Part shown: positions 10,179 through 17,013 of the stretch, one piece after another
Numbering within the stretch: the first letter of the stretch is position 1
How the letters are laid out: every line of letters begins with the position of its first letter
Virus record (IMG/VR): IMGVR_UViG_2529292905_000020
Origin: a virus
Lineage: Duplodnaviria > Heunggongvirae > Uroviricota > Caudoviricetes
DNA length: 25,360 nt
Direction: 5' to 3' (one strand)
Translations under genes and position numbers: made by a program
Notes under the pieces: generated by a model
Told to the model about the DNA's origin: nothing
The model's database searches: none
Seen by the model: the letters and a program-made list of their open reading frames with translations, nothing else

Positions 10179-10490
10179 GTGATTTTCACCAGTCAACAAA
10201 ATATCCGTAGCGCGATAACGGTCAAAAATTATGGTGCTGACACTTTTGTGCCACTGGAGATGACTGTACCTAAGTTCAGGGGAGAAGAACACGTCCGGTG
10301 GGATGGTCGGGCCAGATTTAAAGGGCAGGTCATGGCTCCAGCCTGTACGCTGGCAATGGAGGCTGCCTGGCGGGAAATTGATATGGGAACCACGCCACTC
10401 AGGGATTTACTGCCGGTCCAGAGAATAAATTCCTGTTACGGTTACACCACTGTGATCTTGCAAGTGCAGGAAAGTAGGTCTACACGGTAA
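10179..10490 (+). other. Possible gene remnant (fimbrial-subunit-like segment)
   Basis: 103-aa ORF with no signal peptide. Segment RFKGQVMAPACTLAMEAAW weakly resembles the N-terminal strand of mature type 1 fimbrial subunits (FKGEVVNAACAV). Could be a fragment or spurious. Confidence 0.2.
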
Positions 10491-10716
10491 CGCGAGTGCG
10501 TGTAACTTTTGATGTCATTCCCGTAGAAACACCGGACAAATTTTCGCTGACAGGTCATGCAGAAGGTATAAATCTGCAGATTATGGACAATTACGGATAT
10601 CCGGCAAGAGCCGGAAAAAGCATGCCGCCTCTAATTCTCAGTGGAAGATGGACTTGATTATACTCATTGCATTGTCAGAAATAGTTATCCATTAAAGGCT
10701 GGCTATTCCAAACAGG

Positions 10717-11667: not shown

Positions 11668-12002
11668 CATCCTCGTCCTTCAGGACGTGGATTCTTTTTC
11701 CGGATGCCGCGCCAGCGGCATGTAGGGGCAGCTCACAAAACGGAAAAAATTGTACGCTAAGCCTCGCCAGGTGAACTGAATTCATTCCGATATGGGAATT
11801 CCCATATCGGGCGAAAACGGTTTGCTGTAACGGCAGAGTTAAGTAGGATTGCTGCGGGTGCTTGAGGCTATCTGCCTCGGGCATGAACACCAACGGCAGA
11901 TAGATAAAAGCCCCACCCGACTATAAATCGAAGTGAGGCCCCTATATGCTCGTCACATATAGATTGCCTCTTACGGACCGAAAGGTCAAGGAGAAGCAGG
12001 CT

Positions 12003-12158
12003 ATGAAGCAGCAAAAGGCGATGTTAATCGCCCTGATCGTCATCTGTTTAACCGTCATAGTGACGGCACTGGTAACGAGGAAAGACCTCTGCGAGGTACG
12101 AATCCGAACCGGCCAGACGGAGGTCGCTGTCTTCACAGCTTACGAACCTGAGGAGTAA
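12003..12158 (+). CDS. hokD: Hok/Gef-family membrane toxin (51 aa)
   Basis: MKQQKAMLIALIVICLTVIVTALVTRKDLCEVRIRTGQTEVAVFTAYEPEE is a Hok-family sequence, matching my recollection of HokD/RelF. Structured leader and 3' fold-back complement present. Confidence 0.85.
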   Translation: MKQQKAMLIALIVICLTVIVTALVTRKDLCEVRIRTGQTEVAVFTAYEPEE

Positions 12159-12228
12159 GAGACCAGGCGGGGGAGAAATCCCTCGCCACCTCTGATGTGT
12201 CAGGCATCCTCAACGCACCCGCACTTAA

Positions 12229-12254
12229 CCCGCTTCGGCGGGTTTTTGTTTTTA
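12229..12254 (+). terminator. Intrinsic terminator after hokD
   Basis: CCCGC-TTCG-GCGGG stem-loop followed by TTTTTGTTTTT. Confidence 0.6.
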
Positions 12255-12386
12255 TTTTCAACGCGTTTGAAGTTCCGGACGGCGCCGGAATAGAATCAAA
12301 AATACTTAAGTAGCGCGCAGGGAGAAGAGGGATGGACCCCGAACTGAACCGCCCCGGTTTTCCTGGAGAGTGTTTTATCTGTGAAC

Positions 12387-13274
12387 TCAGGCTGCCAGAT
12401 CATCGTTTCTGATGGAAGCATAATAAGCTTTTTCTGCTTCTGCCGGAGGGATATGACCCAGCCTTCCCAGCAATCGTCGATTGTTATACCAGTCCACCCA
12501 CGTGAGTGTGGCCAGTTCCACTTCTGCACGGTTTTTCCAGCTCTTACGGTGTATTACCTCCGCTTTGTAAAGACCATTGATGCTCTCCGCCATCGCGTTG
12601 TCATACGAGTCACCTGTACTCCCTGTTGATGCCAGCAGTTTTGCTTCTTTTAGTCGCTCCGTATAGGCCAGTGATACATACTGAGAACCTTTATCACTGT
12701 GATGGACTGTGCCGGACGGCCGACGGGCCCACAACGCCTGCTCCAGTGCATCCAGCACGAATGTCGTTTCCATAGACGATGAGACTCGCCACCCCACGAT
12801 GCATCCGGCAAACACATCAATGATGAACGCCACATAGACGAAGCCCTGCCATGTGCTGACGTAAGTAAAATCAGCCACCCACAGCTGGTCAGGACGTTCT
12901 GCCACGAACTGACGGTTTACGCGGTCGCCTGCGGAAACGGCTTTCCGGCTGACGGTAGTACGGACCTTTTTACCCCGGAGAACACCGGCAAGTCCCATAA
13001 CCGCCATGAGGCGCGCCACTGTACATCTGGCCACCCTGATACCTTCGCGTAACAACTGGCGCCAGACTTTACGCACACCGTACACCTGATGATTTTCATC
13101 GTATACGCGCTGTATCTCTCTCTTCAGCCAGTCATCGCGCTGCGCACGGGCACTGCGTTTATCAGGATGATGTCGCTGTTGCTGACAGTGGTAATACGTT
13201 GACGGGGCAATATGCAGTTCACTGCATACCGGTCCGACCCCGTACTGCTCACGCAGCTTATCCAGCAGTGGCAT
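12387..13274 (-). CDS. IS629 transposase OrfB (DDE catalytic domain)
   Basis: 295-aa ORF with the IS3-family OrfB C-terminus (...LGHIPPAEAEKAYYASIRNDDLAA). Confidence 0.9.
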   Translation of the reverse strand: MPLLDKLREQYGVGPVCSELHIAPSTYYHCQQQRHHPDKRSARAQRDDWLKREIQRVYDENHQVYGVRKVWRQLLREGIRVARCTVARLMAVMGLAGVLRGKKVRTTVSRKAVSAGDRVNRQFVAERPDQLWVADFTYVSTWQGFVYVAFIIDVFAGCIVGWRVSSSMETTFVLDALEQALWARRPSGTVHHSDKGSQYVSLAYTERLKEAKLLASTGSTGDSYDNAMAESINGLYKAEVIHRKSWKNRAEVELATLTWVDWYNNRRLLGRLGHIPPAEAEKAYYASIRNDDLAA

Positions 13275-13600
13275 TATTTTTTCCAGAGGCGGTCGAACTC
13301 CGCCTTCGCAAAATAAGCGGAAGCCTGGCGAAGGATATCGTTACTGCGGCGCAGTTCACGATTTTCACGTTCCAGCTCTTTCAGACGCTGACGTTCAGCG
13401 GTGGTGAATCCACCATCACCACTCCCGGTATCCCGCTCATGCTGACGAACCCACACACGCAGAGTCTCTGGCGTACAGCCAATCTTTGGGGCAATGGAAC
13501 AAATTGCCGCCCATTGTGAGTCATATTCGCCCTGACTTTCCAGAACCATACGAACTGCCCGTTGACGGACCTCGGGGGAAAAACGTGTATTTTTAGTCAT
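13274..13600 (-). CDS. IS629 transposase OrfA (HTH)
   Basis: 108-aa [22 protein letters not shown]... matching remembered IS629 OrfA. Its stop overlaps the OrfB ATG (TAATG) beside an A6 run. Confidence 0.9.
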
Positions 13601-13692
13601 CCTGTTTACCTCTTTCTCAGGGAGTTTAGTCTCCAGGATTCCCGGGGCGGTTCAAACAGGGGGAGTGCTATTTATCTGGAAGGATTCTGTTG

Positions 13693-16841: not shown

Positions 16842-17013
16842 CTACACTTATTTTCCCGGCTCGCTTTTGCGGGCCTTTTTTGTATCTGCGCCACGCCCGG
16901 CGCATACCAACCACAGAGCCTTTCGGGGGGGAGCTTACGGAGTGGTCAGTGTGACTTTCTCTGTGGGCAGATCGCTCCCGGGCGTTGGCTCACCCACCCA
17001 AAGGAACGTCACG

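Follow-up and report, generated by a model that had tools for sequence, protein, structure and literature searches.

Does a hok gene that lies in a prophage away from relBE still belong to a complete RNA-controlled toxin-antitoxin cassette, and how does such a locus relate to the hokD of E. coli K-12? We address this question for a 25,360-nucleotide stretch of viral DNA (IMG/VR record IMGVR_UViG_2529292905_000020), hereafter called the window, with all coordinates counted from its first letter. We conclude that positions 11822-12254 very probably form a complete hok/mok/sok type I toxin-antitoxin cassette of the hokD allele, which most likely works like the parB system of plasmid R1. The feature is thus an ordinary hok/sok RNA-controlled cassette of a kind already known, and it is the intact form of the hokD that in K-12 persists only as a stump behind relBE.

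Identity and prophage setting of the hokD locus

The protein encoded at 12003-12158 (Table 1) matches the Pfam family HOK_GEF (PF01848) with 82.9 bits against a cutoff of 22 (E = 1.2e-23) and is identical to K-12 HokD (WP_000813254), and the gene is annotated as hokD in identical loci. The leader matches the Rfam family RF01794 over the full length of the model (103.9 bits versus a gathering score of 59; 11856-12005), so that the original prediction of a hok locus is confirmed at both the protein and the RNA level. The RF01794 model spans the mRNA from its 5′ end to the hok AUG, and the antisense strand of the window scores just 15 bits. Since this "sok antitoxin" family therefore matches the hok-sense strand, the strand of the hit should not be read as that of the antitoxin, Sok. 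In the RefSeq/PGAP records of identical loci, the hokD CDS is the sole annotation, and every record listed has none under the leader (11840-12002), with no mok or Sok feature. A literature search for "sokD" gave nothing relevant.

The window is a lambdoid prophage integrated beside ompW in an EHEC/EPEC-type E. coli, and the segment 11700-12300 is shared at 100% identity with strain E2865 and with O157:H7 and O111 genomes. The prophage genes are ordered int, xis, exo, dicB, repressor/cro-like, replication genes, a fimbrial pseudogene, paa, hokD, DUF968, rusA, Q, tRNAs and lysis genes. The hokD cassette lies in the nin region, between the paa adhesin gene and DUF968/rusA/Q. With the fimbrial pseudogene and paa upstream of hok, virulence cargo and a toxin-antitoxin cassette lie side by side in this region.

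Table 1. Positions of the cassette elements and of neighbouring features in the window
Feature	Position	Strand	Details
Fimbrial-protein pseudogene	10179-10657		Frameshifted; upstream of hok
paa	10909-11667		AcfC-family adhesin; Pfam SBP_bac_11, 118 bits
hok promoter, putative	11822-11849	+	-35 TTGCTG 11822-11827, 16-nt spacer, -10 TAGGAT 11844-11849
hok mRNA, predicted full length ~395 nt	11856-12250	+	Extent of homology with other hok loci; fold z = -7.6; RF01794 over 11856-12005
tac element	11856-11867	+	GGGUGCUUGAGG; 5′ partner of fbi
Metastable 5′ hairpin of the nascent transcript, predicted	11856-11884	+	tac paired with GCCUCGGGCA; fold prediction
Stem (second hairpin of the original prediction)	11868-11903	+	GGCUAUCUGCC / GGCAGAUAG; folding, alignment A1
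Sok RNA, predicted ~55 nt	~11954 to 11900	-	5′ end G11954; terminator hairpin 11939 to 11910; U-run 11909 to 11906
ucb / anti-SD box	11908-11914	+	AAGCCCC; predicted to pair with tac after 3′ end removal
mok Shine-Dalgarno (SD)	11935-11938	+	GAGG, 7 nt before ATG; sequestered in full-length fold
mok frame, 70 codons	11946-12158	+	In frame with hok (57 nt); 70-aa ORF includes Hok
Sok promoter, putative	11961-11989	-	-35 TTGACC 11989 to 11984, 17-nt spacer, -10 CAATCT 11966 to 11961
dcb box	11967-11970	+	CCUC; pairs with mok SD in truncated mRNA (folds of 11856-12196 and 11856-12200)
hok ORF, 51 aa HokD	12003-12158	+	SD AAGGAG 11988-11993
3′ stem-loop	12166-12187	+	GGCGGGGGA...UCCCUCGCC; would cap processed mRNA
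fbi element	12208-12220	+	CCUCAA-C-GCACCC; just before terminator; folding and conservation
Intrinsic terminator of hok mRNA	12227-12254	+	AACCCGC-UUCG-GCGGGUU and U-run
IS3-family element, 1310 bp, IS629-sized	12345-13654	ORFs on -	ORFs of 108 and 295 aa; 3-bp target duplication
ALIL frameshift pseudoknot	13203-13319		Inside the IS3-family element

Conserved pairing between the two ends of the hok mRNA

The original prediction had proposed a long-range pairing between a 5′ segment, CTGCGGGTGCTTGAGG (11852-11867), and a 3′ segment, CCTCAACGCACCCGCAC (12208-12224). Within these segments, tac and fbi pair over 9 + 6 bp, interrupted by a single bulged base, C12214. The MFE fold of 11856-12250 has an energy of -166.3 kcal/mol, compared with -121.4 +/- 5.9 kcal/mol for dinucleotide shuffles (z = -7.6; 0/100 shuffles as good), and it pairs 11856-11867 with 12220-12208, so that the predicted transcript does fold back on itself.

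Conservation of this pairing was assessed among loci from a Hok peptide scan, which yielded 53 loci with one genome per species. The 37 loci with both ends constitute alignment A1 and come from Escherichia spp., Shigella, Kluyvera, Citrobacter, Pseudocitrobacter, further Enterobacteriaceae, Photorhabdus and Erwinia. By blastn, the similarity of other hok loci to the window typically extends from ~11848-11854 to ~12193-12220 and so is bounded by the two pairing partners. In the great majority of the aligned loci (35/37), no part of the mRNA forms a better duplex with the 5′ 13 nt than the 22 nt that directly precede the terminator (-17 to -26 kcal/mol), and 10-12 of the first 12 nt are paired with the fbi window in the MFE fold; the two exceptions (L005 and L047) are visibly decayed copies. 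The changes within the duplex are compensatory: pair 4 covaries (U-A, n = 24; C-G, n = 10), and GAGG/CCUC becomes GAGA/UCUC in Photorhabdus and Kluyvera, a G-C to A-U exchange. When pairs were counted in fixed columns, many cells in the outer half of the duplex seemed unpaired, which arises because the position of the bulge varies between clades and was resolved by the per-sequence duplex and MFE analysis.

These data also bear on whether the hairpins and the 5′/3′ complementarity could be a product of chance in a GC-rich intergenic region. Short inverted repeats are common, and a repeat search returns 21 pairs in 671 nt. Yet the fold lies far outside the shuffled distribution, the same partner windows pair with covariation in 35 of the 37 divergent loci, and sliding the 3′ partners by 1-3 columns lowers the fraction of tac/fbi cells that pair in fixed columns from 88.9% to 33-55%. 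A chance origin is refuted by the shuffle z-score, the slid-column control and the per-locus folds, and we assign it next to no probability. On covariation and predicted folding, the 5′/3′ complementarity is instead the tac/fbi interaction of hok mRNAs, conserved across six or more genera.

Predicted folding states and promoter of the hok mRNA

According to the R1 model, the full-length mRNA is locked by tac/fbi pairing, and a metastable 5′ hairpin exists transiently while the mRNA is being transcribed (PMC9841398). The in-silico folds of the window locus reproduce each state of this model. The first 40-50 nt (11856-11895/11905) fold into a 13-bp hairpin of -19.0 kcal/mol, while folds of transcripts truncated at the 3′ end (11856-12192 to 11856-12205) all switch tac onto 11908-11914 with one internal mismatch. 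The tac/ucb columns can pair in 98% of cells across A1, and the one position of tac that fails to pair with ucb coincides with the position at which tac and fbi covary. Two further structures are maintained in the alignment. The stem at 11868-11903, for which the arms CTATCTGCC (11869-11877) and GGCAGATAG (11895-11903) had been quoted, is paired in 94.6% of cells over the 37 loci, with changes on both sides at 2 pairs, and the 3′ stem-loop at 12166-12187 is paired in 97.7% of cells, with both-side changes at 3 pairs. Two other RNA families gave sub-threshold matches in this region and were rejected: isrK (24.9 bits against a gathering score of 50, E = 0.0008 in a 181-nt search, 12167-12248), which is probably a generic two-hairpin-plus-terminator resemblance, and rsmX, with 20.5 bits in the hok 3′ UTR, which we judged to be of the same generic kind.

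A consensus promoter scan with a threshold of 4/6 matches per hexamer detected neither a hok nor a Sok promoter at the cassette, and both were therefore placed by alignment. For hok, positions T5, A6 and T10 of alignment A1, which belong to the -10 element, are invariant or nearly so among the 37 loci, and the element is followed 7 nt later by the conserved 5′ G of tac. The hok promoter of R1 is weak, and a sub-threshold promoter at 11822-11849 fits with this.

Alternatively, hok might conceivably be expressed as the tail of an upstream operon, through paa or early-right read-through, with the leader elements as relics, in the way that the relBE promoter drives K-12 hokD. The gene is co-oriented with paa and with the phage replication and Q genes, K-12 hokD is without its own promoter and starts 72 nt after relE, and the HokW protein of a related prophage locus appears after mitomycin C in a RecA-dependent manner (PMC8621323). 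Against this arrangement, paa is followed by a terminator-like hairpin and T-run (11669-11700), and loci that are preceded by unrelated genes also conserve the -10 box and the 5′ G of tac. Moreover, the metastable hairpin and the tac/fbi and tac/ucb pairings make sense only for a transcript that starts at ~11856, and read-through upon induction may add to the regulation of the cassette itself rather than replace it. We therefore regard expression solely as an operon tail as quite improbable, and we favor transcription of hok from its own weak promoter.

The mok frame and the hok coding region

The suggestion in the original prediction that ATG 11946 may open a mok-like frame is borne out by the alignment: this ATG is invariant in 37/37 loci, where it lies 56-58 nt upstream of the hok ATG, and in the window it is in frame with hok, as in K-12 mokC. 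Relative to hok, mok is in phase (frame 0) in 26 loci, shifted by +1 in 7, which is the R1 arrangement, and by +2 in 4. From this comparison, the conserved property is an upstream, putatively translated frame that reads across the hok start, and an in-frame mok is not unusual, since K-12 mokC is annotated likewise. The arms CTATATG and CATATAG, also quoted as a hairpin, were located at 11942-11948 and 11956-11962.

Within the hok coding sequence, the motif UUACGAA (12140-12146), which resembles the tRNA-Arg anticodon loop, spans the Tyr47 codon TAC (12141-12143), and TACGAA is invariant in 37/37 loci. [quoted passage not shown] A second UACGAA is found at 12097-12102, where editing would be synonymous (Val32).

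A predicted Sok RNA on the minus strand

The original prediction had not been able to place a Sok-like antisense RNA. Homology to sokC and the strand preference of a hairpin now assign a predicted Sok to the minus strand at ~11954 to 11900. The annotated K-12 sokC (16952-17010) has a promoter of the form TTGACC-17-CACTCT and a transcription start 7 nt after the -10 element, at mok +9, and it ends in ...GGGGCUUUUCUCUAU; past the corresponding -10 element of the window, the minus strand continues as GACGAGCAUAUAGGGGCCUCACUUCGAUUUAUAGUCGGGUGGGGCUUUUAUCUAU. Transferring the sokC geometry to the window yields an RNA that would cover the mok SD and start codon. The terminator hairpin of this predicted RNA (GCCCC to GAGGC) has the lower folding energy on the minus strand in 22/22 distinct variants, with a mean difference of -7.8 kcal/mol: 1-4 G.U pairs on the minus strand correspond to C.A mismatches in the hok sense, and the U-run follows the hairpin on the minus strand only.

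The putative Sok -10 element aligns with the TAACCT that is altered in the promoter-less sokW construct (primers YO-421/422), which Takada et al. mutated to silence sokW (PMC8621323). Compared with TATAAT, the window's CAATCT matches only at A2 and T6 and is weak by consensus. With a promoter that is weak and was missed by the scan, Sok expression is something that we infer.

A possible exchange of the Sok segment

The similarity of the window to a hokW-like type of locus (L007, 515-962) is uneven along the cassette. The hok CDS is 99% identical, the 3′ UTR 97% and the region from tac to ucb 85%, whereas the Sok body and target (11915-11954) are just 35% identical, and the Sok hairpin is short in the window but long in L007. 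The 5′ tail of the window's Sok instead resembles the core-genome SokC of K-12, with which it shares AGCAUAUAGG. It is possible, though we hold it to be rather doubtful, that prophage hok loci which are nearly the same elsewhere have exchanged the Sok/target segment at ~11915-11954 as a cassette. If such a swap did occur, co-resident prophage hok/sok copies could change their antitoxin specificity to stay orthogonal; similar hok loci occupy up to 10 places in a genome. A converse possibility is that the prophage toxin of the window is cross-regulated by chromosomal SokC. This mosaic segment is the only, and only mildly, unexpected point of the locus, and it offers a modest lead on antitoxin specificity among multiple prophage copies.

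Features flanking the cassette

All of the upstream hairpin sequences quoted in the original prediction are present, but the one with the central AATT lies one base away from the predicted 11788-11811 and falls outside the hok cassette. It is a perfect 24-nt palindrome, CCGATATGGGAATTCCCATATCGG, at 11787-11810, upstream of the hok promoter, and it occurs once in the window. We rejected it as a hok element, as it lies outside the block shared with other hok loci, which begins at ~11827-11848, and accompanies the paa-hok spacer in 579 genomes. A copy with one mismatch is found in strain STEC299 at the same prophage position, before other cargo (IbrB-like / PAPS reductase genes), and the palindrome may be a module-boundary hairpin.

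On the other side, the IS3-family element was considered as a disruptor of the cassette and dismissed: it lies ~90 nt beyond the hok terminator and leaves the cassette untouched. Neither E2865 nor O157:H7 strain PV15-279 has this insertion. Immediately past the hok terminator, a sigma-70-like site, TTGAAG-18-TAGAAT (12267-12296, plus strand), may, from its sequence, be the promoter of the next phage gene, now separated from it by the IS insertion.

Relationship to K-12 hokD and relBE

K-12 relBE has no similarity anywhere in the window, where paa lies upstream of hok instead, in agreement with the earlier observation that no relB or relE precedes the gene. The similarity to K-12 (98-99%) begins only at 11989, 14 nt before the hok ATG, and runs through the 3′ UTR and terminator. 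K-12 hokD, with relE ending 72 nt upstream, is thus without the hok promoter, tac, ucb, mok and Sok, and the linkage to relBE is confined to Qin prophages of the K-12 type. In other E. coli, a Qin-like prophage has the whole leader without relBE. Among 5,426 complete E. coli genomes, 573 contain the leader with at least 99% identity, which argues for maintenance rather than decay, and in 3,376 of the 5,426 a match of 80% identity or better covers no less than the first 76 nt of the leader.

With the full leader in many genomes and Qin-like prophages without relBE, the linkage to relBE is the exception. Judging from this distribution of homology, the presence of relBE in K-12 is a derived state, brought about by a K-12-type rearrangement. 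Pedersen and Gerdes are said to have described K-12 hokD as truncated in 1999, and the distribution agrees. The K-12 stump would thus derive from a full hok/mok/sok cassette that is common in EHEC/EPEC lambdoid prophages, a point of small relevance beyond annotation.

Proposed mechanism

The elements of the sequence, how they pair and how far they are conserved are shown directly, and homology and in-silico folding suggest how the cassette would operate; the ends of the transcripts, trimming at the 3′ end, Sok expression and the biological role are inferred. The weak promoter would give rise to a stable hok mRNA of ~395 nt, the 5′ end of which would be held in the metastable hairpin during synthesis. 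In the complete mRNA, tac would pair with fbi, yielding a locked form that is neither translated nor bound by Sok. Slow 3′ trimming to the stem-loop at 12166-12187 would then take away fbi, whereupon tac would move onto ucb (11908-11914) and the mok ribosome-binding site would be freed. Ribosomes starting at mok 11946 would read through the hok start, and, being in frame, would make a 70-aa extended Hok product; mok translation would at the same time open the hok start site, such that the membrane toxin is made. Normally, the short-lived Sok would cover the mok SD and start and trigger decay of the mRNA. Toxin would accumulate only once Sok synthesis stops, either upon loss of the prophage or upon induction, with rightward phage transcription running against the Sok promoter. 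As hok is co-oriented with early-right transcription, induction could, speculatively, override Sok.

For R1, exonucleolytic trimming from the 3′ end, cleavage of the Sok-hok duplex by RNase III and killing upon Sok decay have been shown (PMC9841398), as they have in part for hokW-sokW (PMC8621323). By analogy with hokW-sokW, candidate roles of the window cassette would be prophage maintenance and/or faster lysis on induction.

An intact appearance is not proof of activity, however. In a preprint's citation of Pedersen & Gerdes 1999, the chromosomal hokA, hokB and hokC are reported to be unable to mediate post-segregational killing (10.1101/2025.08.07.668861), and the window cassette could similarly be an intact but physiologically silent passenger that neither kills nor stabilizes. 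Promoters of hok and Sok that are weak by consensus and fall under the scan threshold would suit such a passenger, but several observations point the other way: all of the regulatory pairings are kept across genera with compensatory changes, the mok ATG and hok ORF are intact, the two decayed loci in the alignment look clearly different, and the prophage paralogue hokW-sokW is active (PMC8621323). We consider silence unlikely, while granting it real weight, and we favor a cassette that functions in the manner of R1.

Comparison with known systems

When compared to the archetype, R1 hok/mok/sok (parB), the window shows the same elements in an unchanged order: tac, the predicted metastable hairpin, ucb, the predicted Sok terminator, mok SD/ATG, dcb, the putative Sok promoter, hok SD/ORF, 3′ stem-loop, fbi and terminator. 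The R1 5′ end, GGCGCUUGAGG, aligns with GGGUGCUUGAGG of the window, and the single internal mismatch of tac/ucb falls at the same place in both (model of PMC9841398). The two loci differ in that nucleotide identity is ~55% overall and Hok is ~44% identical, a figure that refers to HokW versus R1 (PMC8621323). In addition, mok is in frame in the window but out of frame in R1, the window's fbi has a one-base bulge, its Sok hairpin is shorter, and it resides on a prophage rather than a plasmid.

The prophage location is shared with K-12 Qin hokD (relF, the third gene of relBEF), the Hok protein of which is identical and the DNA of which is 98-99% identical from 11989 onward, with the same phage genes downstream. 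That locus, however, keeps only 14 nt upstream of the hok ATG and has relBE directly upstream, whereas the window has the full leader and paa.

The nearest studied relatives are K-12 hokC/mokC/sokC (gef) and hokW-sokW of Sakai prophage 5 (Sp5) of O157:H7. The K-12 hokC locus resembles the window in its 19-codon in-frame mok extension, which reads MLVTYRLPLTDRKVKEKQA in the window versus MQNTCRVPLTDRKVKEKRA or MLNTRRVPLTDRKVKEKRA in the hokC-type loci L019 and L021, and in the layout of its Sok promoter, putative in the window (TTGACC-17-CAnTCT, with the transcription start at mok +9). It differs in that HokC has 50 aa and the window's HokD 51 aa, IS186 in the hokC 3′ region removes fbi, and hokC lies on the core chromosome while the window's hokD lies on a prophage. 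The hokW-sokW locus, which likewise lies in a lambdoid prophage, has the same first 50 leader nucleotides as the window: its knock-out primer arm is identical to 11854-11903, and there are exact matches to primer sites at 11861, 12003 and 12192. The two Hok proteins diverge at the C-terminus (..VFVDYESEK versus ..VFTAYEPEE), as does the Sok region, which in sokW is of the long-hairpin type with a -10 of TAACCT, and the prophage is a different one. Since the primers for the hokW Sok region and C-terminus do not match the window, the window locus is a paralogue rather than hokW itself, and it is for hokW-sokW in Sp5, by experiment a type I toxin-antitoxin system, that toxicity, Sok antitoxin activity, RNase III/Hfq dependence and faster/earlier phage release have been shown (PMC8621323).
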